Source: a virus. From it: 35,928 nt of DNA. The position numbers and the translations under genes were made by a program. The stretch lies in the IMG/VR virus record IMGVR_UViG_3300045988_115600. The stretch is one strand, 5' to 3'. Below, piece by piece: positions 425 to 26,463 of the stretch (position 1 is its first letter; every line of letters begins with the position of its first letter). The notes under the pieces were generated by a model. The model saw nothing but the letters and a program-made list of their open reading frames with translations, did no database searches and was not told where the DNA came from.

Positions 425-1426
425 ATGGCGTTACAGAATGTACAGAGAATACAGATTGAGCTTGACGGCAGCGCACCTTTTGAGTATGTCGTGGCAAAAG
501 CTGGGGAAAAAGAAAGCCGGATAGTGGAAGTTACACTGTTGGAGAATAAGAAAGAGTTTACCATACCAGCCGGGACAACAGCAAAAATTAAGTATTACAA
601 GCCAGACGGCAAATTTGTATTGAACAATGCCACAATCAGCGGGAATGTTATTACAGTGACATATACAGAGCAGATGCTGGCAGTTTCCGGCACTGGGCGT
701 GGGGAAATTGTTTTATACAACGGAACAGCCGTATTACGAAGCGCAACGTATTACACGAAGATTACACCAACGGTGTACAAGGAAAATGGGCTGATAAGTG
801 ATAATGAGTTTTTGGATATGGCAGAAAGCATTATTGCAATGAATCAGCAGACAGATAAGGCAATAAATGCAACCAAGAGTGCAGAACAGGCGGCAGCAGA
901 TGCCAATACAGCAACAGCAGCAGCCAATAGCGCAGCAAAAGCGGGAAATGCAGCGGCTACAGCCGGAAATAATGCAGCAAAGGCAGCGAATGATGCAGCA
1001 GAGGCGGCAAATAATGCAGCAAACAGTGTAGCACAGACAAAGAAAGATGCAACAGCGGCAGCAGAAGCCGCCAACAGTGCAGCCAAGGCAGCAAACGAAG
1101 CGACCACAGCAGCCAATAGTGCAGCGAAAGCGGGAAATGCAGCAGCCGCAGCCGGGAACAGCGCAGCCAAGGCAGCGAATGATGCAGCAGCAGCGGCAAA
1201 TGAAGCCAAAGCCAATACAGTAACAGCAACACAGAACGCACAGACAGCAACCAGCGAGGCGAACACAAAGGCAGCAGCCGCCAATAATGCAGCCGTAGCG
1301 GCAAATAAAGCGGCGGCAGCCTGTGAGAATATGGCAAAGGGAATTAACAGTATGACGGACAGCACAACGGGCATTACCTACACAATAGGGATTAACGGCG
1401 GCATGGTGTATTTAGAATCAGTATAA
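425..1426 (+). CDS. Tail fibre / baseplate upper protein-like (BppU-type N-domain) with an Ala/Asn-rich shaft.
   Basis: 333-aa ORF with an AAGGAG RBS. The N-terminal ~140 aa resemble BppU-type fibre N-domains (recalled from memory, not searched). The C-terminal ~190 aa are AANSAAKAGNAAA-type low complexity, typical of fibre shafts. It lies directly after Tal. Confidence 0.6.
   Translation: MALQNVQRIQIELDGSAPFEYVVAKAGEKESRIVEVTLLENKKEFTIPAGTTAKIKYYKPDGKFVLNNATISGNVITVTYTEQMLAVSGTGRGEIVLYNGTAVLRSATYYTKITPTVYKENGLISDNEFLDMAESIIAMNQQTDKAINATKSAEQAAADANTATAAANSAAKAGNAAATAGNNAAKAANDAAEAANNAANSVAQTKKDATAAAEAANSAAKAANEATTAANSAAKAGNAAAAAGNSAAKAANDAAAAANEAKANTVTATQNAQTATSEANTKAAAANNAAVAANKAAAACENMAKGINSMTDSTTGITYTIGINGGMVYLESV
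918..1207 (+). repeat. Internal direct duplication inside the fibre shaft: ~100-nt units at about 918..1017 and 1108..1207.
   Basis: gcagccaatag[c/t]gcagc[a/g]aaagcgggaaatgcagc...gcagcgaatgatgcagcag occurs twice. The protein segments AANSAAKAGNAAATAGNNAAKAANDAA and AANSAAKAGNAAAAAGNSAAKAANDAA correspond. Confidence 0.7.
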
Positions 1427-1436: not shown

Positions 1437-2714
1437 ATGGCAAGAATTTATTTAGCGGATAAAGAAACATTGGACAGTACGCACGCAAATACAAATGCAA
1501 TTCTGGCAGCATTAGAGGAAAGCGGCGGGGAACATAAGAAAGCGGTACGTTATGGTATCAAAATCAGCAAGAGCGACAGCGGAAAGAAAAGCCGGGTAAC
1601 GTACCTATATGACGCTGTAGGCATGACCCCTGCGGCGATGAACTATACAGACGGTGTTTTTAACTATGGTAGCTGGGGCAATGTGGAATTTGTAAAGAAT
1701 AACTACCCTTGCATGGTTAAGTTTGACGGTACAGAGGACTACAAGTTACTGGCAACAGATTACTCATTAAAGGCAGACGGAACAACGGCAAGCGATGTGG
1801 CAAACGTGGATTATGCGGGTAATGCAATGGCAGCATTTAAGGGCGGCTGGCTGTGCCAGTACGAAACGGCTACAGACGAATACATCATTTGGAGTAATGT
1901 AAAATACGATGACGGGTACAACGCATACCACAGAACAGCACCAGACGGAGTTATCAGAGAGGGATTTTACCGCAGAATCTACACACCTGCATTATTAAAT
2001 AATGTAGCAAGGTCATTAAGTGGGCAGCAGCCAATGGCAAGCAAAAATGCAACGCAGGAACGTACATACATTAAAGCAAACGGCGATGTATGGGAGCATA
2101 CAAGCTGGTGGGAATGGAATTATATTATTGCACTGTTAAAGATTATGGCAAAATCAGAGGATTTACAGGAAGCATACGGCAATGGAAACATGAGCGGTTA
2201 TGTGAATGATTCAACGAAGTATTACGGAGTACTTGCCACAGGTAGTATGGACGATAAAGGGCAGTTTTACGGATATAATGCCGGAAATAAACAGATTAAG
2301 GTATTCCATACAGAGGCAATGTGGGGCGATCAGTGGGAGCGTATCTGTCAAATGGTTTGTGATAAAGGCGTTGTGAAAGTGCAGCCATATGGAGATTGTA
2401 ATTTAACTGGTGCAGGATTTGAAAAAGTGCTAGATTTTGCAGATTACGGAGTAAGTGGTAGCGTTGGCGGCTACATGAAAGATACCGTTATGACGAAAGC
2501 GGGACGTTTCCCGGTAACATATACAGGCAGCAGCTCAACATATCTGTGTGATTACTTTTGGTTGAATACAGGCATTGTGGCTGTGCCTCTTGTGGGCGGC
2601 GACTGCAACAGCGGGCTGGGTTGCGGGGCTTGCGTGACCTTGGCCAACACCGCTGGCAATGCGACCTGGGGCATTGCGCCCGGTCTTTCTTGCAAAATGC
2701 CTAATGCTGCGTAA
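1437..2714 (+). CDS. DGR target protein 1, a putative receptor-binding fibre tip whose C-terminal 38 codons are the variable repeat.
   Basis: 425-aa ORF with an AAGGAG RBS, immediately downstream of the fibre gene. Its C-terminus VAVPLVGGDCNSGLGCGACVTLANTAGNATWGIAPG is encoded by VR1, which matches the TR except at adenines. Confidence 0.85.
   Translation: MARIYLADKETLDSTHANTNAILAALEESGGEHKKAVRYGIKISKSDSGKKSRVTYLYDAVGMTPAAMNYTDGVFNYGSWGNVEFVKNNYPCMVKFDGTEDYKLLATDYSLKADGTTASDVANVDYAGNAMAAFKGGWLCQYETATDEYIIWSNVKYDDGYNAYHRTAPDGVIREGFYRRIYTPALLNNVARSLSGQQPMASKNATQERTYIKANGDVWEHTSWWEWNYIIALLKIMAKSEDLQEAYGNGNMSGYVNDSTKYYGVLATGSMDDKGQFYGYNAGNKQIKVFHTEAMWGDQWERICQMVCDKGVVKVQPYGDCNLTGAGFEKVLDFADYGVSGSVGGYMKDTVMTKAGRFPVTYTGSSSTYLCDYFWLNTGIVAVPLVGGDCNSGLGCGACVTLANTAGNATWGIAPGLSCKMPNAA
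2577..2691 (+). repeat. DGR variable repeat VR1.
   Basis: Gap-free 115-nt manual alignment to TR 2810..2924 shows 12 mismatches. All are at TR adenines (A->G x8, A->C x3, A->T x1). The first 24 nt, which contain no A, are identical. Confidence 0.9.
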
Positions 2715-2729
2715 GCAGTAAAGGGGGAA

Positions 2730-2747
2730 CGGGGGATTTCTCCCCCG
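2730..2747 (+). promoter_or_regulatory. GC-rich hairpin 38 nt downstream of VR1: 7-bp stem CGGGGGA/TCCCCCG with loop TTTC. Candidate DGR target-recognition element.
   Basis: The inverted repeat was read directly. A near-identical copy follows VR2 at 14278..14295. Confidence 0.7.
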
Positions 2748-2809
2748 CAGGAAAGTACAACATACGAAAAATTAACGGTAGAGAGAATATAATAGGGGAT
2801 TTCCGGGGC

Positions 2810-2924
2810 GTGGCTGTGCCTCTTGTGGGCGGCAACTGCAACAACGGGCTGAATTGCGGGGCTTACGTGAACTTGAACAACACCGCTGGCAATGCGAACT
2901 GGAACATTGCGCCCGGTCATTCTT
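2810..2924 (+). repeat. DGR template repeat (TR), non-coding.
   Basis: It lies in the 334-nt gap between the target stop and the RT start. It contains 24 adenines, and 10 codons in the VR frame are AAC/AAT. It is the invariant parent of both VR1 and VR2. Confidence 0.9.
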
Positions 2925-3048
2925 ATCAAATTATGGAAGATTAACCAAATGCCCCGGAAATTCCTACACCGCTGGCGGTTGAAATACCGCTGAAAGTGAA
3001 AATACAGCCGCAAAAGGTGCAGTATGGTAGCCGGGGCGAAGCCCTTAG

Positions 3049-4260
3049 TTGCATAGCGTGGCGAACTACTGCAAGGCGATAAGAAAGAGAATAAGAATGA
3101 TTAGTTTTAACGGCGTAAGCGAACAACTGTATATACCAGAAGAACAAATAAAAGATATATACAATGCATCAAAAGGAAAGAGCAAGAAAGAACAGGCGCA
3201 GATAGTAAAAGCGAATGTAGAACACTACAGAAAAGAGCTGGATAAAAGATTAAAGAACAATACATTTGCACCGAAAAGACATAAAACAAAAATCATACAG
3301 GAAAATTCCTGCAAGAAAACACGAAAGATAGTAAAGCCACAATATATGTATGAGCAAATGGCGCACCATTCCGTAATGCGGGTATTTGTGCCGATTGCAA
3401 TGAGAGGCATGTATTACCATGTGTACGGGAGTATACCGGGAAAAGGTGTACACAGAGGAAAAAGAACTGTAGAACGGTGGATAAGAGAGGATAGCAGAAA
3501 CTGCAAGTACATATATAAGCTGGATATACGGCATTTCTTTGAGAGTGTGCCGCACAGAAGATTAAAGAAAGCACTAAAACGGAAAATCAGAGATAGAGAG
3601 TTACTAAAGAAATTATTTATTATCATAGACAGCCATAAACCGGGGTTGCCGTTAGGCTATTACCCGTCACAGTGGTTCGGTAATTTTTATTTGCAGCCAC
3701 TAGATCACTTTATCATGGAGCAGTTACATGTAAAGCATTACATACGGTATATGGACGATATGGTTATATTCGGAAACAATAAAAAGGAACTGCATAAAGC
3801 AAGGCTGCAAATTGAGAAATTCATAACGGAAGAGCTGGGATTACAAATAAAGAAAAACTGGCAGGTATTCCGTTTTGACTATGTAGACAGAAAAGGCAAG
3901 CGCAGAGGCAGACCGTTGGATTTTATGGGGTTCAAATTTTATAGAGACAGAACAACGATACGAAAGAGCATATTACAGGGCATACGTGGCAAGGTCAACC
4001 GGGTAAAGCGAAAAGAAAAGATTACGTGGGTAGATGCAGGTAGTTTACTTTCTAGGCTGGGCTGGATTTGGCATAGTGACACTTACGCATATTACGAAAG
4101 ATACATAAAACCATATGTAAAAGTGAAAGTGCTAAAAACGCTGGTTTCAAAGCACGCAAGAAAGGAGAATGAACGCAATGGAATGGTACGCAGCAGAAAG
4201 CACTGCAGAAGAGAAACCAAAAGAGCTGGATATAACAAGCAGCCCGCACCTTGTATATAA
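3049..4260 (+). CDS. DGR reverse transcriptase.
   Basis: 403-aa ORF. An alternative, more likely start is ATG 3097 (MISFNG...). YMDD lies at 3748..3759 (IRYMDDMVIFG). The DGR-clade motif LGYYPSQ ([LIV]GxxxSQ) lies at 3652..3672. It is adjacent to the TR. Confidence 0.9.
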   Translation: MHSVANYCKAIRKRIRMISFNGVSEQLYIPEEQIKDIYNASKGKSKKEQAQIVKANVEHYRKELDKRLKNNTFAPKRHKTKIIQENSCKKTRKIVKPQYMYEQMAHHSVMRVFVPIAMRGMYYHVYGSIPGKGVHRGKRTVERWIREDSRNCKYIYKLDIRHFFESVPHRRLKKALKRKIRDRELLKKLFIIIDSHKPGLPLGYYPSQWFGNFYLQPLDHFIMEQLHVKHYIRYMDDMVIFGNNKKELHKARLQIEKFITEELGLQIKKNWQVFRFDYVDRKGKRRGRPLDFMGFKFYRDRTTIRKSILQGIRGKVNRVKRKEKITWVDAGSLLSRLGWIWHSDTYAYYERYIKPYVKVKVLKTLVSKHARKENERNGMVRSRKHCRRETKRAGYNKQPAPCI

Positions 4261-4483
4261 GAGGCGCAATATTGAAAAAGTACCCATGAGTAATGAAAAT
4301 GAGGAAAGCATGGCAGGAGAAAAGTGGGTATATGAAGAATGTATGCAGGATAAAGAAGAGTATGAGAGCCAGCAGGCAGAGTTATTAAGCCCAACTACAG
4401 AGGCAATCATGCAGGAAATTTCCGCATTGCAGATGCAGCAGACAGAAACGCAGATCACACTTGAAATGTTAATGGAGCAGTAG
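4178..4483 (+). CDS. Hypothetical acidic protein in the position usually held by an XkdW-like gene upstream of xkdX.
   Basis: ORF 4169..4483. ATG 4178 has better spacing to AAGGAG (4162..4167). It overlaps the RT 3' end by about 83 nt. It is Glu-rich and not Avd-like. Confidence 0.5.
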   Translation: MEWYAAESTAEEKPKELDITSSPHLVYKRRNIEKVPMSNENEESMAGEKWVYEECMQDKEEYESQQAELLSPTTEAIMQEISALQMQQTETQITLEMLMEQ

Positions 4484-4498
4484 AAAGGCGGCACAGAC

Positions 4499-4648
4499 AT
4501 GTACGAAGAACTGAAAAAGAAATACGATAAAGGCTATATCACAAAGGCAACATTAAAAGGCTGGGTACGCATTGAGCGTAAGGTAAAGGGCAGAGGGATT
4601 ACAGAGGAACAGTACGAGCAGATTACAGGCGAAAAATACGAGGCATAG
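4499..4648 (+). CDS. XkdX-family small phage protein (49 aa).
   Basis: It is not in the ORF track because it is under 60 aa. The translation MYEELKKKYDKGYITKATLKGWVRIERKVKGRGITEEQYEQITGEKYEA matches the XkdX pattern (W...ITEEQYxxITG). It sits between the fibre and lysis genes. Confidence 0.65.
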   Translation: MYEELKKKYDKGYITKATLKGWVRIERKVKGRGITEEQYEQITGEKYEA

Positions 4649-4664
4649 GAGAAACACAGAGAAA

Positions 4665-5021
4665 ATGGTAGAACAGGTAATAACTTACATTACGGCAAAC
4701 TGGGTAGCATGGTTATTTGCCGGAGCGTATGCAATTCTTATTGCACTTTATAAAAAAGAGAAACAGCAGCATAAGGAAGAAAGAGAAGAAAACAAGGCAG
4801 TGCGTGAGGGATTGCAGGCACTTTTGCGGCAGCAAATCATAGATATTTGCCTAAAGTATGAGGAACACAAAGAAGCCCCGGCATGGGCAAAGCAGGCTGA
4901 AACATCAGCATATAAAGCCTATGAAAAGCTGGGCGGCAATGATGTAGCACACGCAATGCATGAAAGATTTATGCAACTGCCATTATCAGACGGTAATTTA
5001 GAAACAGAAAGGATACATTAG
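4665..5021 (+). CDS. Membrane-anchored protein, first gene of the lysis cluster.
   Basis: 118 aa with one N-terminal TM helix (WVAWLFAGAYAILIALY) followed by a charged helical domain. Function not established. Confidence 0.5.
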   Translation: MVEQVITYITANWVAWLFAGAYAILIALYKKEKQQHKEEREENKAVREGLQALLRQQIIDICLKYEEHKEAPAWAKQAETSAYKAYEKLGGNDVAHAMHERFMQLPLSDGNLETERIH

Positions 5022-7392: not shown

Positions 7393-8376
7393 CTACTGAT
7401 TTAAAACCAGATCATAAAATACGTTTTCAGATAAAATCTGTATGTCCTTGCCTTTTAAAATAAGTGATTCAGCCTTTTTCTGTTTATTGCTTTTACCGTC
7501 TTTTATGAGACTGCAAAAATCATTATTGCCGAGAATTAAATAATTTGTTTTGGCTGTGACGTTATCCCCGCACTGCCCGCCGAGGTTTACCACAAGTTGC
7601 ATGGCATCTTTACGCTGCATCTTTTCTAATGTGCCAGTGAATACACAGAGCTTGCCGTAAAGCGGGTGGCTGATATCAAAATTATCTGTAGTTGCCGTAA
7701 TATCTTTTGCGTGTAGTTGGTGGCTGGAATAAGAAGCCTTAAAGCCGTCAAAGTCCCCATATTGTGAAACCGCATCAGAAAGCAAGGATTGATAGCAGGC
7801 GTTGCAGGCTTCACAATCAGCATAGGAGCGGTGCGCCGGGGAAGAAACTTTATAATGGGCGGCAACCGTTTCTAGTTTGTGGTTTTTCAGTTCCGGCAGC
7901 AGTTTCCTTGCAAAACGCATTACATCAACAAAGGAATTGGTAAAATCAATGCTGTGCGTATCCTGCAATACGTCATAAATAAAATTGATATCGAAATTTA
8001 CGTTATAGCCTACAAGGATATCAGAACCGACAAAATCATAGAAAGATTTAATTGCATCGGAAATGGCGGGAGCATCAGCAACCAGATCGTTTGTTATCCC
8101 GGTCAGTTCGGTTATAAAGCTGTCAATAGGTTCGGTGGGTTTAACAAGAGTAGTAAAAGAATCAACTAAAGAACCGTTTGAGTAGCGCAGTGCGGATAGT
8201 TCGATGATTTCACAATAACGGGAGTCCAGCCCGGTTGTTTCAATGTCAATTACCGTATAAGTATCTGGTGCGGCAATGAGGCTGCGCCCTTTATTTGGGC
8301 GGCTGGGTTTTTCTGATTTATCAGACGTAGTAACAAAAGGTTTCCCGTTTTCATCAATACCGATAGAAATGAACAT
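7393..8376 (-). CDS. DEDDh 3'-5' exonuclease (DnaQ/epsilon-like) fused to a C-terminal BRCT domain.
   Basis: ORF 7393..8457. The likely start is ATG at 8376 (MFISIGIDENG) with an AGAGGG RBS. Exo motifs DIETTG, GYNVNFDINF and HRSYADCEA are present. The BRCT-like C-terminus reads GKLCVFTGTL...AKTNYLILGN. It is the only reverse-strand gene. Confidence 0.8.
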   Translation of the reverse strand: MFISIGIDENGKPFVTTSDKSEKPSRPNKGRSLIAAPDTYTVIDIETTGLDSRYCEIIELSALRYSNGSLVDSFTTLVKPTEPIDSFITELTGITNDLVADAPAISDAIKSFYDFVGSDILVGYNVNFDINFIYDVLQDTHSIDFTNSFVDVMRFARKLLPELKNHKLETVAAHYKVSSPAHRSYADCEACNACYQSLLSDAVSQYGDFDGFKASYSSHQLHAKDITATTDNFDISHPLYGKLCVFTGTLEKMQRKDAMQLVVNLGGQCGDNVTAKTNYLILGNNDFCSLIKDGKSNKQKKAESLILKGKDIQILSENVFYDLVLNQ

Positions 8377-8501
8377 AGTAAATACCCTCTTTCGTTTGAA
8401 AATTATAGTCATGCTGACCTTTAACACAATTATGCTTTTGAAATGTGGTAAAGTCAAGAAAAATTCTGATTATTAACACAAATACGATAGGGGCGTACTG
8501 A

Positions 8502-9654: not shown

Positions 9655-10707
9655 ATGGCAAATCAAAAGGGTAGCAGACAATTAAAGCACAATGATAGAA
9701 TCAGATTAGAAGCCTTGTACAATGCAGGGCATAAGGTTGTGGAGATCGCAGAAATTTTGCATGTACACCGCAGTACAATTTATAACGAGCTGAAGCGTGG
9801 ACAATATGAACATTTGAACAGTGATTATACAAGAGAAATGAGATACAGCGCAGACCTTGCACAACGGAAGTATGAGGAAAATTTAAAAGTGCGAGGAACG
9901 CAATTAAAGATAGGAAATGATATTAAGCTGGCAAATTACATAGAGGACAAAATAATAAATGAAGATTACAGCCCGGACGCAATCATAGGGGAACTGACAG
10001 CAGAGGGACGCTGGGGAGAATTTCAAACCAGAATATGCACCACTACGGTATACAACTATATTGATAAGGGAATCTTTTTAAAAGTAACAAATAAGGACTT
10101 GCCAGTAAAGAAGAACAAAAAACGCAAGTATAATAAGGTAAAGAAACAGAAAAGGGCAGAAGCAGGGGAAAGCATAGAGAATAGACCAGAAGCAATAAAC
10201 AACCGGGAAGAGTTCGGACATTGGGAAATGGACAGCGTAATAGGACAGCGTGGAAAATCGAAAAATACATTGCTGACACTCACAGAGCGAAAGACACGAG
10301 CAGAAATTATTTTTAAATTGCCGGATCACAGCGCAGAGGCGGTAGTGGCAGCAGTTGACAGATTAGAGAATCGCTGGGGAGAAATGTTTAAGACGGTATT
10401 TAAGAGCATCACAGTAGACAACGGCACAGAGTTTGCATATTGTGCAGAGTTGGAGCGTTCAGCGATAGGCGAGGGGAAAAGAACCAAAATGTATTATTGC
10501 CACCCGTACAGTAGTTGGGAGCGTGGTACAAACGAGGTAACAAATAAAATGGTACGCCGCCGAGTTCCAAAGGGCACAAATTTTGACGGACGGACAGAGG
10601 AAGAAATACAGGCAGTAGAAGAGTGGATAAATAAGTATCCTAGGCGCATACATGGGTATAAATCAGCAGGGCAGTTATTTGATGAAGAACTTAAAAGAAT
10701 CAGCTAA
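9655..10707 (+). CDS. IS30-family DDE transposase/integrase.
   Basis: 350 aa. N-terminal HTH (RIRLEALYNAGHKVVEIAEILHVHRSTIYNELKRG). DDE triad context HWEMDSV ... TVDNGTEF ... SWERGTNE. The element ends were not found by eye. Confidence 0.85.
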   Translation: MANQKGSRQLKHNDRIRLEALYNAGHKVVEIAEILHVHRSTIYNELKRGQYEHLNSDYTREMRYSADLAQRKYEENLKVRGTQLKIGNDIKLANYIEDKIINEDYSPDAIIGELTAEGRWGEFQTRICTTTVYNYIDKGIFLKVTNKDLPVKKNKKRKYNKVKKQKRAEAGESIENRPEAINNREEFGHWEMDSVIGQRGKSKNTLLTLTERKTRAEIIFKLPDHSAEAVVAAVDRLENRWGEMFKTVFKSITVDNGTEFAYCAELERSAIGEGKRTKMYYCHPYSSWERGTNEVTNKMVRRRVPKGTNFDGRTEEEIQAVEEWINKYPRRIHGYKSAGQLFDEELKRIS

Positions 10708-10950
10708 TCTAATAAAAGGGCATAACGGCTGGCTGGAAACGGTACAGCCTTATTGGATTGCTTATAAAAAGAACCGTAGAAACAGAATATACAATAAAAG
10801 CACATATGTTTTGTACAAAATGCCGATATTGAAATTTTGTCGAAAAAAAGGTTGAAATTTTTAAAGATAAGTTTTAGAATGAAATTCGACAAAGGGAATT
10901 AAAAAAATTCTCTTGCCGAATTTCTTTTTATATATGGCAAGAAAAGAAAA

Positions 10951-10990
10951 GCGTGCAAGAGTGTAAAAAGCTCTTGCACGCTTATTTTAT
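10951..10990 (+). terminator. Strong rho-independent terminator.
   Basis: Perfect 11-bp stem GCGTGCAAGAG (10951..10961) / CTCTTGCACGC (10971..10981), followed by TTATTTTATTT. Confidence 0.75.
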
Positions 10991-11205: not shown

Positions 11206-11234
11206 ATCAAAATAACAAAAGAGAGGCAAAGAAC

Positions 11235-11624
11235 ATGAAGAAAGTAGATTTTAACAAATTACAGGCAGGGGACTTAGTGAAAGTACCACGCACACAGTTT
11301 GCACCTATGCGTAGTGGTTGGAACGGCTGGCTATTCAGCGAGGCAGTAGTGATAAGAAAGGGAGTAGGGAGAAAAAGCAAAAAGAATGTAGCTGTAGTGG
11401 AAATGAGAATACCAGCAGGGAAGAACAACTACGGAACTATAGAGGCTACATTTTACGCAGAGAATATTTTTGAAACGCCAGCAGTGGAAAACGCAAGAAA
11501 CATTTTGAAGAATTACGAAATAAAGGACACAGAGAGTTTTTACAAATTCATTGAGCGGGACGATGTAACGGGCTGTGATTGGATAAGGTTTTTAATAGAA
11601 AAAGGCTTTTTGTTTAATGAATAA
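11235..11624 (+). CDS. Hypothetical protein.
   Basis: 129-aa ORF with an AGAGAGG RBS. No recognisable domain. Confidence 0.5.
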   Translation: MKKVDFNKLQAGDLVKVPRTQFAPMRSGWNGWLFSEAVVIRKGVGRKSKKNVAVVEMRIPAGKNNYGTIEATFYAENIFETPAVENARNILKNYEIKDTESFYKFIERDDVTGCDWIRFLIEKGFLFNE

Positions 11625-11643
11625 GCGGCAATAAGCCGCACGA

Positions 11644-11717
11644 GTGCCGTTAGTTCAGTTGGTTAGAGCAACCGCCTCATAAGCGGTAAGTCATGGGTTC
11701 AAGTCCCATACGGCGCA
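11644..11717 (+). tRNA. tRNA with anticodon CAU (elongator Met, or Ile2 if lysidine-modified).
   Basis: Manually folded cloverleaf:
- Acceptor stem GTGCCGT/ACGGCGC (one G-U pair).
- D arm GTTC-AGTTGGTTA-GAGC.
- Anticodon stem ACCGC/GCGGT with loop CTCATAA (CAT at 11678..11680).
- 5-nt variable loop.
- T arm ATGGG-TTCAAGT-CCCAT.
- Discriminator A. No encoded CCA. Confidence 0.85.
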
Positions 11718-11942
11718 TTGAAAGCAGGAACGTGGCAACCTGCGACAGCGTGGCAGCAGGCGAACAACTACACGCTGGGTGCTGTGAATTTGGAGCAGTG
11801 GGCACGCCAGCTAGAGAGCGTGTGGACGGTCAACAGGTTTTAGGCAACTTTTTAATGTGAAAAGGGGCAACACAGCATACGAAGCCACTACAGGAGCGTG
11901 GGCAATATGAGAATAAGAGCACCGCCGGGAAGAGAGGAAAGT

Positions 11943-12278
11943 ATGGAACGCACAAAAGATTTTTATAACGGCATGAATTATGCAAAAAAACAATTACAGC
12001 AACGGGAACATGAAAGACGCAGAAGAAAAAGATATTTCATTAAGCAGAAATTATGCGGGATTGCGACATTTGCGGTGTTGGTAATTGCAACACTGTTTGC
12101 ACCTCTTTTGGATTTGGATATTATCACGATTTCAGCATTTTTCATGCCGATAGCATTATCACTTACCTTTAGCAAGGAAATGTGGATAATGGACACTTAT
12201 TATTGGGAAGTAAAAGAAAGAGAGGAAAAACGTGAGCAGCATGTACATAAGAAGCCAAGACAGAGAAAAGCTGTATAG
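11943..12278 (+). CDS. Hypothetical membrane protein (2 TM helices).
   Basis: ORF 11898..12278. ATG 11943 follows GAGAGGAAAG. Basic N-terminus, helices LCGIATFAVLVIATLFAPLL and ITISAFFMPIALSLTF. Confidence 0.5.
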   Translation: MERTKDFYNGMNYAKKQLQQREHERRRRKRYFIKQKLCGIATFAVLVIATLFAPLLDLDIITISAFFMPIALSLTFSKEMWIMDTYYWEVKEREEKREQHVHKKPRQRKAV

Positions 12279-12564
12279 GTTGGGTGGAAATTACGCATGT
12301 GTGGAGTATGGAAGTGCAACAGAAAGAGCCAAAAAGGGGCAAGAACCAAAAGAAACACACAGTATTTTTATTTCTGACGGAGTGTTAGAAGAAATAGGAA
12401 CATACGAAACAAAAGAGCGGTGTTTAGAGATTATAGACGAAATACAGAAAGTAAGCGTTTCTTATTTATATTCAGAGGGTAGCCCCGGATTTTTAAAGGG
12501 TGCGCCAGCATTTCCACCATTTGCAGCGGAAATACCAAGAATATACGAAATGCCAGAGAAATAG
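12241..12564 (+). CDS. Hypothetical protein.
   Basis: ORF 12232..12564. ATG 12241 is the likely start. No recognisable domain. Confidence 0.45.
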   Translation: MYIRSQDREKLYRLGGNYACVEYGSATERAKKGQEPKETHSIFISDGVLEEIGTYETKERCLEIIDEIQKVSVSYLYSEGSPGFLKGAPAFPPFAAEIPRIYEMPEK

Positions 12565-12575
12565 GAGAAAAAGCA

Positions 12576-12770
12576 ATGAAAATTAAAATTGTACAGCATG
12601 TACCAACAAAGCCAAGCCCGGAAGTAGGCAAGGTATACGAGGTAACAAAAATAAACAAGAGAAGCAACAGGCAAGGCGGCACAGTATATTTTGTAATGTG
12701 TGAGGGCGTAGAGGTGGGCGTGCTTGAAAGAGAAATGAGGATTGTAGAGGATGGGGCTGTAGAAGAATGA
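12576..12770 (+). CDS. Hypothetical small protein.
   Basis: 64-aa ORF with RBS AGGAGAAAAAGCA-ATG. Its stop overlaps the next start (ATGA). Confidence 0.45.
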   Translation: MKIKIVQHVPTKPSPEVGKVYEVTKINKRSNRQGGTVYFVMCEGVEVGVLEREMRIVEDGAVEE

Positions 12771-13078
12771 CATTAGAGCAATTCATAGAGCCAATACACA
12801 ACATAACAAGAATACGCATTGTTAAAGGAAAGGGCAGCAGGTACGAAACCAGTGAGGCAGACGTATACATAGGCTGGCTGGGAATATTGCGGGAAGATAA
12901 AAGTCAGATCAGTAAAGAAATATGGCAGGCAGAGATAAAGGATTTTGCAGTAGTGCCGGATATTCGGCATAAGGACTGGCAAAAGCTGGGGTTAATGAAA
13001 CCATTAGAGCCGGGAGAACACCCGCAGTATAAATTTAGTGATTTGACAATGACACTGTATTACACATTTTGCATATAA
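12767..13078 (+). CDS. Hypothetical protein.
   Basis: 103-aa ORF, translationally coupled to the preceding ORF. No recognisable domain. Confidence 0.45.
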   Translation: MTLEQFIEPIHNITRIRIVKGKGSRYETSEADVYIGWLGILREDKSQISKEIWQAEIKDFAVVPDIRHKDWQKLGLMKPLEPGEHPQYKFSDLTMTLYYTFCI

Positions 13079-13096: not shown

Positions 13097-14269
13097 ATGA
13101 GTGAAGCAATGGCAGCAGTAGAAAGAGCTGTACGGTTTGGAATTAAGATTAACAAAAACGAAGAGGACAGCAACAAGCGGGTAACGTACCTGTATGATGC
13201 CGTAGGTATGATACCTGCGGTAATGGATTTTGTAGAGGGTGCATTTAATTATGGTAGCTGGGGCAATGTGGAATTTGTAAAGAACAACTACCCTTGCATG
13301 GTTAAATTTGACGGCACAGAGGATTACAGATTAAACCCGGACAATTACGAACTGAAAGAGGACGGGACAAAGAGCAATATTACAGATATTTATTATGCGG
13401 GTAATGCAATGGCTGCATTTAAGGGCGGCTGGCTGTGCCAGTACGAAACAGCTACAGACGAATATATCATTTGGAGCAATGTAAAATTTGATGATTCATA
13501 CAACGCATACCACAGAACAGGAAAAGACGGCACATTAAATGCCGGATTCTACAGACACATTTATACGCCGTCACTGGTTGGCAATGCAGCCCGTAGCCTT
13601 AGTGGTTGTCAGACTATCGGAAATATGACAGCGGAGCAGGAAAACGAGGCTTGCAAGGCAAACGGCGATAAGTGGGCTATGAGTTCATGGTGGGAATGGA
13701 ATTACATTATTTGCCTGTTAAAGATTATGGCAAAAACAGACGATTTGCAGACAGCCTACGGAACAGGAAACAGCAGAACCGGGCAGCCAGCGAATACAGG
13801 TACATTAAACGGCAAAGGGCAGTTTTATGGTGCATCTGATTTTAGAATACAAGTTAAGGTATTCCATACAGAGGCATTATGGGGCGATAAATGGGAGCGT
13901 TTAACAAAGCTGATCTGTGCAGACGGAATTGTAAAAGTATTGCCGTATGGAGAGCCGAACTTTACGGGACAGGGATATACAGACGCATACCGCTATATGT
14001 GGAATGATTGGCGTTATGGCTATGTAGATAAAACCGTAATGACACCATACGGACGCTTGCCAATCTCATTTAATGGGACAAGCCATAAATATGCAGCAGA
14101 CGGCGGGGCAGTAGATACAGAAATTGTGGCTGTGCCTCTTGTGGGCGGCAGCTGCAACAACGGGCTGAATTGCGGGGCTTACGTGACCTTGTACAACTCC
14201 GCTGGCTATGCGTACTGGGGCGTTGCGCCCGGTCTTTCTTGTGAAATGCCTGCGGCTGCGGAGCAGTAA
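13097..14269 (+). CDS. DGR target protein 2, a paralog of target 1 that lacks its first ~35 aa. Its C-terminus is the second variable repeat.
   Basis: 390 aa with a GAGGT RBS. It shares long blocks with the 1437..2714 product (VTYLYDAVGM, NYGSWGNVEFVKNNYPCMVKFDGTEDY, GNAMAAFKGGWLCQYETATDEYIIWSNVK). The C-terminus VAVPLVGGSCNNGLNCGAYVTLYNSAGYAYWGVAPG is encoded by VR2. Confidence 0.85.
   Translation: MSEAMAAVERAVRFGIKINKNEEDSNKRVTYLYDAVGMIPAVMDFVEGAFNYGSWGNVEFVKNNYPCMVKFDGTEDYRLNPDNYELKEDGTKSNITDIYYAGNAMAAFKGGWLCQYETATDEYIIWSNVKFDDSYNAYHRTGKDGTLNAGFYRHIYTPSLVGNAARSLSGCQTIGNMTAEQENEACKANGDKWAMSSWWEWNYIICLLKIMAKTDDLQTAYGTGNSRTGQPANTGTLNGKGQFYGASDFRIQVKVFHTEALWGDKWERLTKLICADGIVKVLPYGEPNFTGQGYTDAYRYMWNDWRYGYVDKTVMTPYGRLPISFNGTSHKYAADGGAVDTEIVAVPLVGGSCNNGLNCGAYVTLYNSAGYAYWGVAPGLSCEMPAAAEQ
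14126..14240 (+). repeat. DGR variable repeat VR2, 11.3 kb downstream of the TR.
   Basis: Gap-free 115-nt manual alignment to TR 2810..2924 shows 10 mismatches, all at TR adenines (A->T x5, A->G x4, A->C x1). The pattern differs from VR1. Confidence 0.9.
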
Positions 14270-14277
14270 AGGGGGAA

Positions 14278-14295
14278 CGGGGGATTTTTCCCCCG
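14278..14295 (+). promoter_or_regulatory. GC-rich hairpin 37 nt downstream of VR2: stem CGGGGGA/TCCCCCG with loop TTTT.
   Basis: Same stem as 2730..2747 with a one-base difference in the loop. It is embedded in a shared flank, cagtaaagggggaacgggggattt. Confidence 0.7.
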
Positions 14296-14320: not shown

Positions 14321-14989
14321 ATGAACAATGAAAATTTTGCCGGAATTATGGGAACGGTAAAGCAGGCAGAGGTAACAAGCGGGGTATGCGGATACGACAC
14401 AGAAAACCGCTATGCAGTGCTGCGGGTATGTGTACCGAGAAAAAGCGGGGCAGAGGATACGGTAATTGTAGCTGCAAAAATAAAGGAAAATGAAAACATA
14501 GACGCAGAAGCAATAGCAAGAAATATGGTGGTTGGCAGAGATATTATGGCAACGGGCATTTTGCAGAAAGCCATGAACGCAGAAAGCGGGCATACGGCTG
14601 TTTTTATCCTTGCAGATCACGTTGTAACAGTAGGGTTCCCGGAATATCAGAACGGCGTGCAATTAACAGCGGAAATTGTGAATAACCCGGAAGTAAGAGA
14701 AACACCAAGGGGAAAACATATAGCAGATGTAATGCTGAAAGTGGAAAACTGCATACAGGGTGGAAACGTACATATCCCATGTATTTTCTGGCAGGAGAAC
14801 GCCAGCGAGATTGCAAAGTACAAAAGAGGCACGATTGTAAAAATCACTGGCAGATTACAGAGCCGGGAGTATGTGAAAAAGTATTACGGCGATAATAACA
14901 CAGAATCAGAAGAGAAAAGAACCACTTTCGAGGTATCAGTAGAAAAGATGCAGGTATGGTGGCAGCCGGAAACAGTAGAAAGGAATTAG
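14321..14989 (+). CDS. ssb: Single-stranded DNA-binding protein-like, with two OB-fold halves.
   Basis: 222 aa. The second half (VQLTAEIVNNPEVRETPRGKHIADVMLKV...IPCIFWQENASEIAKYKRGTIVKITGRLQSREY...TTFEVSVEKMQV) follows the canonical SSB OB-fold pattern. The first half is a degenerate copy. Confidence 0.6.
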   Translation: MNNENFAGIMGTVKQAEVTSGVCGYDTENRYAVLRVCVPRKSGAEDTVIVAAKIKENENIDAEAIARNMVVGRDIMATGILQKAMNAESGHTAVFILADHVVTVGFPEYQNGVQLTAEIVNNPEVRETPRGKHIADVMLKVENCIQGGNVHIPCIFWQENASEIAKYKRGTIVKITGRLQSREYVKKYYGDNNTESEEKRTTFEVSVEKMQVWWQPETVERN

Positions 14990-19712: not shown

Positions 19713-19971
19713 AAAGCGATATGGTTATAATCCACCTGCATATATGGACAAGCGAAAGAGAAGAAAGGCAAGGGCGCAGCAGTCCTTGCCTTGTGCTGGT
19801 ATATCGGTGGAGCAGATAACACAGGCAATGGCAACATTTACAGAGGCAGTATTTACCGCAGCAGGAAATATATGTGATGCGCTGGCACAGATGTTTAGCA
19901 GGCAGGCACAGGCATTTAATGTTGCGGCAGAAAAATATAAAGACAGTGAGGCAGGGGCGCATGGGGAATAA
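19681..19971 (+). CDS. Hypothetical basic protein.
   Basis: ORF 19621..19971. ATG 19681 follows AAAAGGAG. Lys/Arg-rich N-terminus. Confidence 0.4.
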   Translation: MNHRQWKKNYKKRYGYNPPAYMDKRKRRKARAQQSLPCAGISVEQITQAMATFTEAVFTAAGNICDALAQMFSRQAQAFNVAAEKYKDSEAGAHGE

Positions 19972-20305
19972 CAAAGAGATGCAGAGGCAGCAGTATAACA
20001 GAACAGTGGCAATGTTGAAACAGTACAGAGATGCACAATTCTTTATACAGCACACAGCGGACGAAGAAAGCAGACAGAGAACAAAAGAGGCAGTACAGCA
20101 TATTACGGCGGCACTGGAAGAGGTACAGCGGCGCAGGCAGCAGGCAGAGAGAGAGGAAGAGTACACAGCATTACGCATGTATTACATGCAGGGATATACA
20201 TACGAGCAGATCGAGAAAGAATTAAACACAGGGAAAGATACACCAAGACGCTGGATTACAGCAGCAGTAAAGGAGCTGGCAGTTATGATTTATGGGATTG
20301 AGTAA
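19961..20305 (+). CDS. Putative late-gene transcriptional regulator with a sigma-70 region-4-like HTH, in the ArpU/RinA position.
   Basis: ORF 19874..20305. ATG 19961 is the likely start. YTALRMYYMQGYTYEQIEKELNTGKDTPRRWITAAVKELA resembles a sigma region-4 HTH. It is the last gene before the packaging module. Confidence 0.5.
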   Translation: MGNNKEMQRQQYNRTVAMLKQYRDAQFFIQHTADEESRQRTKEAVQHITAALEEVQRRRQQAEREEEYTALRMYYMQGYTYEQIEKELNTGKDTPRRWITAAVKELAVMIYGIE

Positions 20306-20389: not shown

Positions 20390-20398
20390 ACAACTGTT

Positions 20399-20448
20399 AA
20401 GGACGCACGAAAGAACTTAAATGTTTTTTCGTGCGTCCTTTTGTTTTT
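20399..20448 (+). terminator. Strong rho-independent terminator upstream of the packaging genes.
   Basis: 14-bp stem AAGGACGCACGAAA (20399..20412) / TTTCGTGCGTCCTT (20427..20440), followed by TTGTTTTT. Confidence 0.75.
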
Positions 20449-20512
20449 CATCATACTTTTACCTCCTGCCCAACGCATGAAACCTAGGGCGTTGGGTAAA
20501 GAAAGAGGCAAC

Positions 20513-20827
20513 ATGAAAGAGTGGGCAGAATGGTTTTATAAATCTAAAGAGTGGACGCAGACAAGAGACGCATACATGGTTGCACAGCATTACTTGTGTG
20601 AACGCTGCGGAGAGCCAGCAAAGATTGTGCATCACAAGATATGGCTGACACCAAAGAACATACACGAGCAGAACATTACGTTATGCTGGGACAACTTAGA
20701 GGCATTGTGTCAGGACTGCCACAACAAAGAGCATCATGCAAAAAACGTGCGTGCAAAACGATATGCGTTTACGGCTGACGGCGAACTAATCCCCCCCATT
20801 CAGAAAAATATTTTTCGCTCACGATAG
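20513..20827 (+). CDS. HNH endonuclease (packaging-associated).
   Basis: ORF 20441..20827. ATG 20513 follows AAAGAGG. CERCG...HHKIWL...CQDCHNKEHH is an HNH/zinc-finger core. It sits immediately upstream of terS/terL, as in HK97-like cos phages. Confidence 0.85.
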   Translation: MKEWAEWFYKSKEWTQTRDAYMVAQHYLCERCGEPAKIVHHKIWLTPKNIHEQNITLCWDNLEALCQDCHNKEHHAKNVRAKRYAFTADGELIPPIQKNIFRSR

Positions 20828-20912
20828 ACCGAGGGGTAACCCTAATTTTACTCTGCAAGGTCGCACATGCGTGGTGTAGAGGGGGTGGGGTGTATCGAAA
20901 GGGGTAAAAGAA

Positions 20913-21266
20913 ATGGCAGCACGAAAGGAAAAGAGCAAAGAAGCCAAGATAAAGAGTGAAAAGACAAGATTAAAAGGGATTTTCAAGGACTTAGACGAAA
21001 ATAAAAAGAAGTTGGTAACGCCGCTGATAGAAAAGGCTGCTTTTATGTCGATAGAACTTGATGAATTGCAGAACGTGATAGAGGAAACGGGCTGGACAAG
21101 TGAGTACAAAAACGGAGAGAACCAGTACGGGACGAAGAAAAGCCCGGAAGCAGAAACATACATAGCATTATCAAAGAATTATGCGGCTATCATCAAGCAA
21201 TTAACAGAGCTTGTACCTGCGGCAAAACGTAAGCAAAGCAAGCTGGCAGCCCTTAGAGAAGAATAG
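20913..21266 (+). CDS. terS: Terminase small subunit (P27 family-like).
   Basis: 117 aa. The position and sequence pattern (KKLVTPLIEKAAFMSIELDELQ...GENQYGTKKSPEAETYIALSKNYAAIIKQL) fit P27-family small terminases. Confidence 0.75.
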   Translation: MAARKEKSKEAKIKSEKTRLKGIFKDLDENKKKLVTPLIEKAAFMSIELDELQNVIEETGWTSEYKNGENQYGTKKSPEAETYIALSKNYAAIIKQLTELVPAAKRKQSKLAALREE

Positions 21267-21271
21267 GGCAA

Positions 21272-22924
21272 ATGCCATATAAAAATTATATCTATGAGTA
21301 CTACGCAAAGATAAGCAGCGGCGAGATCATCGTAGGAAAATGGATTAAAAAAATATTTGAAATCATCATAAACGGGCTACAAACGCAGGAGTATTTTTTT
21401 AATGCCAAGGAAGCCAATAAAGCTATAAAATTCATAGAAACATTTTGCCACCATAGCAAGGGACGTAATGATTTAATCACGCTGGAATTATGGCAAAAAG
21501 CTATAGTTTCCACCATTTTTGGCATACAAGATGCAGAAAAAATACGTGTTTTTCGTGAAATTTTTATTGTTATCGGACGAAAAAACGGCAAAAGTTTGTT
21601 TGCATCTGCGCTAATCGCATACATGGCTTATTTAGAGCCGGAGTATGGACAGGAAATATACTGTTTAGCGCCCAAATTAGACCAAGCAGCCCTTGTATAT
21701 GACGGATTCTATCAAATGGTACAGGCAGAGGAAGAGTTGGAAGAGCTGGCGAAAAAACGGCGTAGCGATATCTATATTGCAGAGAGCAATACAGTTATCA
21801 AACCGATTGCATTTAATGCTAAAAAGTCGGACGGTTTCAACCCGCAGCTTGTTGTATGTGATGAAATGGCGGCATGGAGCGGGGACGCTGGATTAAAGCA
21901 GTATGAGGTTATGAAATCTGCTTTAGGCGCACGTAAACAGCCGATGATTTTAAGCATAAGTACAGCCGGATATATCAACGATAGTATCTATGATGAGTTA
22001 ATGAAGCGTAGTACAAGTTTCTTAAAGGGAAACAGCAAAGAACGCAGACTATTACCATTTTTGTACATGATTGATGATGTGGAAAAATGGAACGATATAG
22101 AAGAACTGAAAAAAGCAAACCCGAATATGGGTGTATCAGTAAAAGAGAGTTTCTTTATTGATGAAATTGCAGTAGCAGAGGGCAGTTTAAGTAAAAAGGC
22201 AGAGTTCCTTACAAAGTACTGCAATATCAAACAGAACAGCTCTATTGCATGGCTGGAATATCAGACAGTGGAAAAAGCAGAAGTATTAAAAACACTGGAA
22301 GATTTTAGAGAGTGCTATGCAGTGGGCGGTATAGATTTGAGCCAAACAACAGACTTGACAGCCGCAAGCGTGGTTATAGAGAAAGAGGGCGTATTATACG
22401 CATTTACACAATTCTTTATGCCGAAAAACAGGCTTGAAACCTTGCAGGCAGCAGATGGAGTACCGTATGACATTTTTGTTAAGAAAGGCATTATTACTTT
22501 ATCCGGGGACAATTACGTTAATTACAAAGACGTATTTAGCTGGTATGTATGGTTGCTGGAAACATACGGCATAAGGGTTTTGAAAATCGGATATGACAGG
22601 TACAGCGCACAGTACCTTGTGGACGATTTGAAAAATTACGGATTCCACACAGATGATGTTTACCAAGGCGAAAACCTCACACCTGTAATACGGGAGTTTG
22701 AGGGAATTGTTAAAGACGGCGATTTTAAAATTGTAAACAATAAATTGCTACAGTCGCATTTCTTAAATGTGGCATTAAAGCACAACATGGAAACAAGGAA
22801 GTTCCGCCCGATAAAGATAGAACAGCGGGCGCATATAGATGGTTTTGTATCTGTCATAGACGCAATGACGGTAAGACAGAAATACCACGAAGAGGTAGGG
22901 GAATTACTGAAAAACGCCGCATAG
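21272..22924 (+). CDS. terL: Terminase large subunit.
   Basis: 550 aa. Walker A IGRKNGKS, Walker B LVVCDEM and a C-terminal nuclease region. It follows terS. Confidence 0.9.
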   Translation: MPYKNYIYEYYAKISSGEIIVGKWIKKIFEIIINGLQTQEYFFNAKEANKAIKFIETFCHHSKGRNDLITLELWQKAIVSTIFGIQDAEKIRVFREIFIVIGRKNGKSLFASALIAYMAYLEPEYGQEIYCLAPKLDQAALVYDGFYQMVQAEEELEELAKKRRSDIYIAESNTVIKPIAFNAKKSDGFNPQLVVCDEMAAWSGDAGLKQYEVMKSALGARKQPMILSISTAGYINDSIYDELMKRSTSFLKGNSKERRLLPFLYMIDDVEKWNDIEELKKANPNMGVSVKESFFIDEIAVAEGSLSKKAEFLTKYCNIKQNSSIAWLEYQTVEKAEVLKTLEDFRECYAVGGIDLSQTTDLTAASVVIEKEGVLYAFTQFFMPKNRLETLQAADGVPYDIFVKKGIITLSGDNYVNYKDVFSWYVWLLETYGIRVLKIGYDRYSAQYLVDDLKNYGFHTDDVYQGENLTPVIREFEGIVKDGDFKIVNNKLLQSHFLNVALKHNMETRKFRPIKIEQRAHIDGFVSVIDAMTVRQKYHEEVGELLKNAA

Positions 22925-22941
22925 AAAGGAGAGTAAACGGC

Positions 22942-24790: not shown

Positions 24791-24820
24791 AAGCGAAAAT
24801 GAAAAGGAGAAAAACAGAGC

Positions 24821-26059: not shown

Positions 26060-26076
26060 GGAAAGAGAGGCACAAT

Positions 26077-26463
26077 ATGGCACATTTTGATGTAAAAGAG
26101 CTTGAAAAGCGGAAAAAGGAAGATTTACAGAAACTTGCAAATGAGCTGGGGTTGAGTGACAGCGGAACGAAAGAAGAGCTTGCAAAGAGAATTGCGGCAG
26201 TAGATGCAGAAGAGCCGGAAGAGGGAGAAACGCAGCAGGGAGAGCCGCAGCAGCCGGAAGTACCGGGAGAAGCAGAACAGGAAACGCCAAAGCCGGAAGT
26301 GTCCGAAACGGACACAGAAAAAGACGGTGTGAGAGTAACGGTTATTGAAACCTACAAAGATAAACAGGCGCAGCAGACATTTAGACCGGGCAAAGAATTT
26401 GTTGTAACAGCAGAACGTGCAGAGGTTTTAGTGGCAGCAGGAGTGGCGAAAATCACAAAGTAG
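26077..26463 (+). CDS. SAP/HeH-motif protein (head-associated, function unknown).
   Basis: 128 aa. KKEDLQKLANELGLSDSGTKEELAKRI is a SAP/Rho-N-like helix-extended-helix motif, followed by a Glu/Pro-rich linker. Confidence 0.5.
   Translation: MAHFDVKELEKRKKEDLQKLANELGLSDSGTKEELAKRIAAVDAEEPEEGETQQGEPQQPEVPGEAEQETPKPEVSETDTEKDGVRVTVIETYKDKQAQQTFRPGKEFVVTAERAEVLVAAGVAKITK

Follow-up and report, generated by a model that had tools for sequence, protein, structure and literature searches.

A second diversity-generating retroelement target among the early genes of a Lachnospiraceae phage

The virus record IMGVR_UViG_3300045988_115600 (IMG/VR; 35,928 nt, hereafter the window) carries a diversity-generating retroelement (DGR) with two target genes. 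Target 1 (T1) lies in the tail module next to the template repeat (TR) and the reverse transcriptase (RT) gene, and target 2 (T2), a paralogue of T1, lies among early and replication genes. Comparison with related contigs and structure prediction lead us to conclude with high confidence that the variable repeat of T2 (VR2) is an active DGR target and that T2 has a fold like that of Mtd of phage BPP-1. The best overall explanation, to which we give slightly better than even chances, is that T2 is a live target served in trans and a separately deployed binding protein made with the early genes.

Results

VR2 differs from the template repeat only at adenines

A first-pass annotation had called a 390-aa paralogue of T1 at this locus. 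The open reading frame (ORF) exists, and its product is 61% identical to T1 in amino acid sequence across the whole length. In register with the 115-nt TR, VR2 (codons 344–382 of T2) shows 10 mismatches, every one at a TR adenine, as the annotation had also reported; at non-adenine positions 0 of 91 differ, and the hypergeometric chance of 10 of 10 mismatches falling on adenines, which make up 24 of the 115 sites, is P = 2.6e-8. One of these mismatches, the A to T change at TR position 110 (window 14235), is fixed in all VR1 and VR2 sequences of the clade; it is a difference of the type that separates initiation of mutagenic homing sequences (IMH and IMH*) and not a product of mutagenesis, so 9 rather than 10 VR2 sites are diversified. 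Between VR1 and VR2 of the window, 13 of 23 adenine sites differ. A wildcard scan of both window strands found exactly three copies of the 115-nt repeat (VR1, TR and VR2), and a third VR in the window was therefore rejected.

VR2 is rewritten in related contigs, independently of VR1

Ten orthologous T2 loci were found in IMG/VR at 91–97% amino acid identity, and a pattern scan gave more; activity was judged from these sequences by comparison between samples. Eleven related contigs carry 11 distinct VR2 sequences, with variation at 23 TR-adenine sites and 3 other sites, and VR1 shows the same pattern across samples. The TR sequence is unchanged among close relatives. In the T2 scaffold (the 343 codons before the VR), the ratio of nonsynonymous to synonymous substitution rates (dN/dS) among orthologues is 0.12–0.17 at dS 0.2–0.25, so that the T2 protein itself is under purifying selection; in VR2 of the same orthologues dN is 0.11–0.29 and dS about 0. 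Contigs L002 and L005 have identical scaffolds (dN = dS = 0) and 12 VR differences. In the 90%-identity protein clusters, T2 is represented by 1672 distinct sequences and T1 by 1906.

These comparisons bear on the possibility that VR2 is a fossil, that is, a duplicated target that is no longer mutagenised. Only its distance from the TR speaks for such a reading. No two of the related contigs share a VR2, TR-adenine sites alone account for the differences even where the scaffolds are identical, the 91 non-adenine sites show no drift, and the cis elements of VR2 are intact (see below). The first-pass annotation had named an invariant VR2 beside a varying VR1 as the mark of a fossil copy; VR2 instead varies across samples as much as VR1. 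The variation between contigs, including the 12 VR differences on identical scaffolds, refutes a fossil copy, to which we give practically no credence.

Coupled diversification of VR1 and VR2 inside one genome was not seen in the four genomes that have both VRs: the two VRs differ at 13.5 of 23 sites on average within a genome and at 14.7 between different genomes. Since VR1 and VR2 of one genome are as unlike as those of different genomes, sequence comparison indicates that they are rewritten independently, in agreement with what the annotation had supposed from the window alone.

T2 is predicted to be a complete Mtd-like variable protein

T2 has no match in a sequence search of the PDB or in Pfam, NCBIfam or PADLOC. 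Among the PHROGs it belongs to phrog_5302, annotated 'tail protein' (E 4.4e-49); T1 and T2 cover only positions 131/153–547 of the 548 in this profile, T2 being without its N-terminal region of 130–150 aa. With a 37-sequence alignment AlphaFold2 (AF2) gave a model of T2 with a predicted local distance difference test score (pLDDT) of 46, and a second homology search (profile A2) added only ten proteins. A third search reached the more distant half of the family, and with the resulting 129-sequence alignment the model reached a pLDDT of 95.4 and a predicted template modelling score (pTM) of 0.94.

The best PDB matches of this model in Foldseek, over about 370 columns, are TaqVP (5vf4, E 7.6e-11) and Mtd (1yu0, E 1.4e-4), followed by lectin-fold enzymes of the FGE/EgtB type. 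In BFVD, 'tail collar fiber' proteins match with template modelling (TM) scores of up to 0.94, and many of these bear a T2-like module at the C-terminus of longer fibres. The matches to Mtd, TaqVP and FGE/EgtB place the VR within a C-type-lectin fold at the 3′ end of the ORF. According to the model, T2 consists of an N-terminal beta domain and a C-type-lectin fold in which the last 39 codons are diversified, and it is predicted to be a complete variable protein of the size of Mtd rather than a fragment.

The 3′ flanks of VR1 and VR2 share a candidate homing element

The homology between the T1 and T2 loci continues beyond the stop codons, into a 7-bp GC stem with a 4-nt loop (CGGGGGA-TTTY-TCCCCCG) that lies 37 nt past VR2; DNA folding gave no comparable hairpin downstream of the TR. 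Two VR-specific bases at the 3′ end of VR2 (T14235 and G14241, the latter an A to G change at TR position 116) are also present in VR1 and in every VR of the clade, whereas the TR retains A at both sites. Retrohoming of BPP-1 requires a GC stem of 7–10 bp with a 4-nt loop, located 4–34 bp from the VR (Guo et al., 2011; PMC3240598). The T2 hairpin fits a target element of this type, although its loop sequence and its distance of 37 nt deviate slightly. In the sense strand the loop reads TTTC at VR1, TTTT at VR2 and TATT in a sister clade; on the antisense strand the VR1 and VR2 loops read GAAA and AAAA, in reverse orientation with respect to the GRNA sense consensus of BPP-1-type elements. A role of the VR2 hairpin as a transcription terminator was rejected, as no T run follows it and VR1 also has the DGR target hairpin.

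T2 occupies an early operon of an integrated prophage

The window is a circularly closed contig (bases 1–77 are identical to 35852–35928), and its features are collected in Table 1. The distance from T2 to the TR, given as 11.3 kb in the first-pass annotation, is 11,316 nt on the circular map and about 24.5 kb in the integrated prophage. The annotation had further placed T2 beside a block of SSB (single-stranded DNA-binding), Rep and ParAB genes, outside the tail module; the SSB, Rep and ParA genes are confirmed, together with a VRR-NUC gene, but ParB is represented only by a weak match below the cutoff. The early operon runs in the order helix-turn-helix (HTH) gene, variable island, 103-aa gene, T2, SSB and Rep. 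Gene order and the terminators suggest that T2 is probably expressed from this operon. Promoter and terminator calls are consensus matches, and promoter-like sites number 25 against 27.7 expected by chance.

Table 1. Features of the window that bear on the two DGR targets. Positions are those of the 35,928-nt window.
Feature	Position	Strand	Remarks
BppU-like baseplate/fibre protein	425..1426	+	Immediately 5′ of T1; BppU_N domain (PF10651) and Ala/Asn-rich 7-aa repeat coiled coil
Target 1 (T1)	1437..2714	+	425-aa tail-module paralogue with conserved N-terminal peptide
VR1	2577..2691		In T1; copy of the 115-nt repeat
Hairpin of VR1	2730..2747		Homologous to that of VR2; 7-bp GC stem, 4-nt loop; DNA fold
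Template repeat (TR)	2810..2924	+	115 nt, 24 adenines, chiefly AAC/AAT codons
DGR reverse transcriptase (RT)	3097..4260	+	387 aa; RVT_1, E 4.8e-14; LGYYPSQ and YMDD motifs
Holin-like genes and endolysin	6077..		
Prophage junction (attP)	10863..10865	none	Integrated copy in [Ruminococcus] faecis opens here
Terminator-like hairpin	10949..10983	+	14-bp stem and T run; just past attachment junction, 5′ of T2 operon and of HTH gene at 11014
103-aa protein, phrog_20014	12767..13078	+	18-nt gap to T2; no Pfam match
Target 2 (T2)	13097..14269	+	390 aa; Mtd/TaqVP-like variable protein (predicted), T1 paralogue, short N-terminus
VR2	14126..14240	+	3′ end of T2, codons 344–382 of 390
VR2 3′ end (IMH-like)	14225..14241	+	GC-rich GCGCCCGG; VR-specific T14235 and G14241 versus TR A2919 and A2925
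GC-rich hairpin/cruciform	14278..14295	+	CGGGGGA-TTTT-TCCCCCG; 37 nt past VR2, in T2–SSB gap; DNA fold
SSB-domain protein	14321..14989	+	PF00436; directly 3′ of T2; same neighbour in sister clade
Rep	15813..		Downstream of T2
VRR-NUC	16822..		Downstream of T2
ParA	17255..		Downstream of T2
ParB-like/DUF3850 protein	18050..		Weak ParB match, below cutoff
Sigma-r4/DUF1492-like gene	19874..20305		Weak match; precedes terminator at 20399
Terminator-like hairpin	20399..20440	+	Strong; 18-bp stem and T run; splits early/replication block from HNH/terminase/structural block
HNH, terminase, portal etc.	downstream of 20440		
Tape measure protein	28971..		
Dit	31864..		
1070-aa tail protein	32613..		Spans contig join

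[Ruminococcus] faecis JCM 15917 has an integrated copy of the phage, 99% identical to the window, within a 559-kb contig (prophage at about 82.8–118.9 kb of BBDW01000001); T2 lies there about 2.2 kb from the left end of the prophage. The prophage ends map next to a gene for an IS30-family DDE transposase (9655..10707; NF033563, 248.7 bits). In the host flanks a direct repeat, ATATAAAATA, stands on either side of the prophage (L050 7695..7795; L051 19350..19450), and a 9-nt inverted repeat, TTTGTCGAA/TTCGACAAA, surrounds the attachment junction (window 10830..10900). The phage thus appears to integrate by means of this transposase and not of a tyrosine or serine integrase. In the JCM 15917 draft both paralogues have extra Gly codons (for example WGGD for WGD; L050 9995..11182 and L051 10078..11184), VR2 has a 1-nt insertion, and a frameshift lies near the start of T1; all of these are probably homopolymer sequencing errors rather than biology. 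Elsewhere in the window, a gene at 7393..8457, which appears to be the sole substantial minus-strand gene among the ORFs examined, encodes a fusion of a DEDDh exonuclease (RNase_T) and BRCT. Its product matches the PADLOC candidate-defence model PDC-S48 (E 8.6e-26) and a CRISPR-associated DEDDh model, and the gene occupies the place expected of a repressor, divergent from an HTH gene at 8502.

The DGR cassette and the tail-module target

The RT gene adjoins the TR, and its product has an [ILV]GxxxSQ-type motif in the form LGYYPSQ, which we take to be specific to DGR RTs, together with YMDD. The cassette is laid out as target, TR and RT, with a 172-nt untranslated spacer from TR to RT. No Avd or HRDC accessory gene was recognised, the small ORFs around the RT (window 2714..4700) having no Pfam match at E <= 0.05; such a gene is not universal among DGRs, and its absence does not exclude membership. 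The BppU-like gene 5′ of T1 contains, at window 854..1303, about 15 tandem 21-nt (7-aa) Ala/Asn-rich repeats of the AANxAAKAA type, which probably form a coiled-coil shaft whose length can vary. A distant prophage (L056) has the same succession of BppU_N, target and RT.

An early paralogue is kept in three lineages

In every close relative T2 lies between the 103-aa phrog_20014 gene and SSB, and in every relative its reading frame is intact, with its own ribosome-binding site (RBS) and start codon. The 103-aa gene stands always directly 5′ of the early-type target in the clade of the window and in the sister clade, and its product is possibly a partner or chaperone of T2. The sister clade (about 72% nucleotide identity) has the same VR pair and the same synteny at T2, with three DNA methyltransferases directly 5′ of the 103-aa gene and T2 (two N6_N4_Mtase and one C5 DNA_methylase; L054 6236..9984). 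Neither a methyltransferase nor another defence or counter-defence gene was found near T2 in the window. The stretch from the attachment site to the 103-aa gene (window 11230..12766) is a variable island, in which close relatives replace 11230–11625 and 12563–12766. In a third lineage the T2-type protein P0109 (468 aa) is encoded by the fourth gene past the repressor and early switch, and its T1-type partner P0108 is encoded in the tail module, where BppU_N, target and RT follow one another in that order. The T2-type gene is thus outside the tail module in all three lineages examined.

Another reading makes T2 a conflict protein, which would be produced early, stay in the cytoplasm and use its hypervariable face to recognise fast-evolving host defence proteins or competing phages. 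A role of this kind has been proposed for second DGR targets that adjoin methyltransferases in Bacteroides phages. Its early-operon position near the prophage end is conserved, the region from attP to T2 is a variable island among close relatives, and the three methyltransferases of the sister clade repeat a pattern described for Quimbyvirus ORF 84 and four gut prophage species (PMC8008677, PMC12629997). Methyltransferases are, however, common early genes, and their adjacency may mean no more than 'early region'. Neither T2 nor its neighbours in the window have a PADLOC, Pfam or NCBIfam defence match, T2 has no partner or effector domain, and its fold and closest relatives are those of receptor-binding tail proteins. 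We regard a conflict protein as possible but doubtful.

In a tree of residues 129–343, T1-type and T2-type proteins separate across the lineages. The T1 type is marked by the ADKETLD N-terminus and an end of the form ...KMP..A, the T2 type by other N-termini and ...EMP or IMP..Q ends. Because the two types split across lineages, the duplication that gave rise to T1 and T2 is older than the lineage splits. The N-domain (residues 13–128) clusters paralogues by phage instead. In P0108 and P0109 (L056 10001..11287 and L057 3837..5243) the proportion of synonymous differences (pS) is 0–0.11 in the N-domain versus 0.55–0.96 in the body; gene conversion has homogenised the N-domain there. The N-domain of the window pair is conserved better than any other part (proportion of nonsynonymous differences, pN, down to 0.04), with no recent conversion, and the bodies of T1 and T2 have diverged to saturation (pS 0.7–0.9, pN 0.35–0.5).

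Such exchange raises the question of whether T2 serves mainly as a recombination reservoir, keeping in store another head that the tail gene can acquire by gene conversion, and not as a protein with a use of its own. In the 36-kb contig 081573 (L031/L049) T1 and T2 share a 180-nt patch with 100% identity, five proteins (P0004, P0007, P0012, P0022 and P0065) are T1/T2 mosaics, and the N-domains of P0108 and P0109 are homogenised. The 180-nt patch and the mosaics may be artefacts of short-read metagenome assembly, which can create such patches and chimeras; we keep the mosaics as a lead and not as firm evidence of recombination, P0108 and P0109 being more robust. Against a reservoir, T2 has its own RBS, start codon and intact frame in every relative, its scaffold dN/dS indicates selection on the protein itself, and the T1 and T2 bodies fall in separate clades across lineages, so that whole-head swaps must be rare. 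We consider a reservoir very improbable. Some IMG/VR contigs collinear with the window (among them also L006 and L007) keep both DGR targets but are without large blocks, for example the whole structural module or the stretch from terminase to tail tube; L005 joins window 20900 to 59, and L016, L017, L024 and L025 join 20391 to 29573. These contigs could be assembly chimeras or defective, satellite-like derivatives.

T2 has a different N-terminus from the tail-module target

The first-pass annotation had remarked that T2 is without the roughly 35 N-terminal residues of T1. T2 begins with 10 residues of its own (MSEAMAAVER) in their place, a net shortening of 25 aa, and these residues are disordered in the AF2 model. 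T1-type proteins down to about 50% identity keep the peptide M..RIY.ADKETLD..HANT.AILAALE ahead of the first strand, compact relatives elsewhere have an N-terminal peptide of 30–45 aa, and T2-type proteins of the third lineage have an unrelated acidic N-terminus of 60–95 aa. In the cases with a neighbour examined, namely the window and one distant prophage, the T1-type protein follows a BppU_N gene. In the baseplate of lactococcal phage TP901-1, BppU holds trimers of the receptor-binding protein BppL. The arrangement in the window is similar in that a BppU_N-domain gene lies directly 5′ of the receptor-binding protein gene, although T1 and T2 are not known to be related to BppL in sequence. 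By this analogy T1 plausibly docks on the C-terminal part of the BppU-like protein through its N-terminal peptide, and the annotation's proposal that the peptide is a virion-attachment segment gains from its retention in tail-type relatives and from the BppU_N gene 5′ of them. The absence of the peptide from T2 suggests an attachment unlike that of T1. It is not decisive, because the homologue P0166, with an N-terminus of 15 aa, lies in a tail module, which weakens the short N-terminus as proof of a non-structural role.

T2 might be an ordinary second receptor-binding protein of the virion, made early and incorporated at assembly, a reading that we take seriously while putting its chances below even. 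It would attach through the shared N-domain, either to the same baseplate partner or in mixed T1/T2 trimers, and give each particle two independently diversified specificities. T2 has the full Mtd/TaqVP architecture and relatives among tail fibres, and its N-domain is under strong purifying selection and identical or nearly so between paralogues (pN 0.04–0.11 in parts of the window pair, pS about 0 in P0108/P0109). The mosaic proteins suggest interchangeable parts, P0166 shows a short N-terminus within a tail module, and T2 has no apparent hydrophobic leader, enzymatic domain or defence-family match. Several observations speak against a second virion protein of this kind: T2 lies outside the tail module in all three lineages and behind a strong terminator that separates it from the late genes, it has no counterpart of the peptide kept by every T1-type protein, the N-terminus in the third lineage is unrelated, and the saturated divergence of the T1 and T2 bodies argues against mixed trimers.

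Discussion

The data show that the DGR works in trans. The RT copies TR RNA with adenine-specific errors, and the cDNA homes into sites that combine the VR 3′ end with a downstream GC hairpin, a combination for which only VR1 and VR2 qualify, so that a single TR and RT serve both. The strong predicted terminator parts the early/replication operon, with T2, from the late structural operon, with T1, TR and RT. In our preferred explanation T2 is made with the early genes as a hypervariable ligand-binding protein that is deployed separately, and it is not a tip docked on the BppU-like protein. It may be soluble, as its short N-terminus shows no obvious hydrophobic leader, and through the N-domain that it shares with T1 it would have the same oligomerisation or partner surface. 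The missing peptide, together with the retention of a peptide-less early paralogue in three lineages, argues that T2 is deployed differently from the tail tip. That T2 is not a stoichiometric tip of the virion is to us a proposition with about even chances, towards which we lean slightly.

Several points count against this explanation. T2 retains the full receptor-binding architecture, its nearest annotated relatives are tail proteins, and P0166 combines a short N-terminus with a place in the tail module. The N-domain is strongly conserved between T1 and T2 and was recently converted in one lineage, as would suit co-assembly or a common partner in the virion. The genes adjoining T2 in the window gave no match to a defence or anti-defence family, and the timing of T2 is read from gene order and consensus terminators. 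As regards the retroelement itself, no Avd-type gene was found near the TR and RT, the hairpin loop is TTTY and not the GRNA of BPP-type elements, and the activity of VR2 is deduced from differences between samples and not from read-level variation.

A further-reaching version holds that T2-type early proteins form a conserved class of non-virion, 'antibody-like' binders that are cytoplasmic or released at lysis; we think this unlikely, though worth stating. The same DGR that retargets the tail would continuously rewrite the ligand-binding face of T2, and T2 would act against fast-evolving molecules of the host or of rival phages, either at an early stage of infection or from the prophage end. 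The N-domain common to both paralogues would then serve oligomerisation and not docking to the virion, and a single common strategy would explain why second targets recur in early or methyltransferase regions across unrelated gut phages.

Comparison with characterised DGR systems places T2 within known bounds. As in BPP-1, transfer from TR to VR is A-specific, the VR lies at the 3′ end of a gene for a trimeric-type C-type-lectin receptor-binding protein of about 380–390 aa, and a GC-rich hairpin with a 7-bp stem and a 4-nt loop lies downstream of the VR. The window differs in having two targets rather than one and no avd gene that we could find, and in a hairpin that is 37 nt from the VR rather than 4–34, with a TTTY loop rather than GRNA (PMC3240598). 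In structural alignment Mtd is 11–14% identical to T2. TaqVP of Thermus aquaticus, the best structural match over 379 columns, is 11% identical (TM 0.46) with different domain packing, and unlike T2 it is a cellular DGR target. The closest homologues in cultured phages are gp17 of Butyrivibrio phage Arawn (35% identity) and the 'BPP-1-like Mtd' of Faecalibacterium phage FP_Epona (27%). The order of genes in Arawn (tape measure protein, Dit, Tal, a 328-aa gene, target, RT, lysis) resembles the T1 locus. Both phages have a single copy, in the tail module, and no early-region paralogue, and Arawn gp17 bears an N-terminal extension of about 140 aa.

Distal second targets outside structural modules have been published, and the layout of T2 has precedents. 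'Many examples' of phage DGRs with an adjacent and a non-adjacent target in the same prophage, within 50 kb, were reported by Wu et al. (2018; PMC5758913), an arrangement like that of the window, although the survey gave neither the location in the phage nor the identity of such targets. In Quimbyvirus the second target, ORF 84, is distal to the structural module, close to a nuclease and methyltransferases, and probably non-structural (Benler et al., 2021; PMC8008677), and four gut prophage species have a distal second VR near counter-defence genes (Nature 2025; PMC12629997). These phages share with the present one a VR in the tail region and a second VR outside the structural module, judged non-structural in those phages, with methyltransferases adjacent (here in the sister clade only). 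They belong to hosts of the Bacteroidota, whereas this phage infects a Lachnospiraceae host, its tail target and second target lie on the same strand, the second being a paralogue of the first over its full length, and the window has no methyltransferase. Two-target phage cassettes have also been described for the tentaclins, with two C-type-lectin proteins, the role of the second being unclear (Baykov et al., 2023; PMC10743442); those cassettes include both targets, which differ in topology (N-terminal VR and Ig domains), and here the targets are paralogues of the same topology 11–24 kb apart. The first-pass description of a non-virion target as unusual for a phage DGR was therefore overstated, since non-adjacent and non-structural second targets are on record (PMC5758913, PMC8008677, PMC12629997). 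New here are the host group, the paralogy of both targets, the deep conservation of the early position and the availability of a culturable lysogen.

What second DGR targets outside structural modules do was asked for Bacteroides phages in 2021 and once more in 2025. The present case adds a siphophage lineage of gut Lachnospiraceae whose second target is paralogous to the tail tip along its whole length and has been kept in an early operon since before three lineages split. As a 99% identical prophage resides in a type strain that can be cultured, [Ruminococcus]/Mediterraneibacter faecis JCM 15917, proteomics of the virion, timing of transcripts and an RT knockout are feasible. If the early copy is non-structural, phage DGRs diversify more than host-range determinants; if it is structural, genes for receptor-binding proteins can lie, and be maintained, a long way from tail operons, which would matter for the prediction of host range from genomes.

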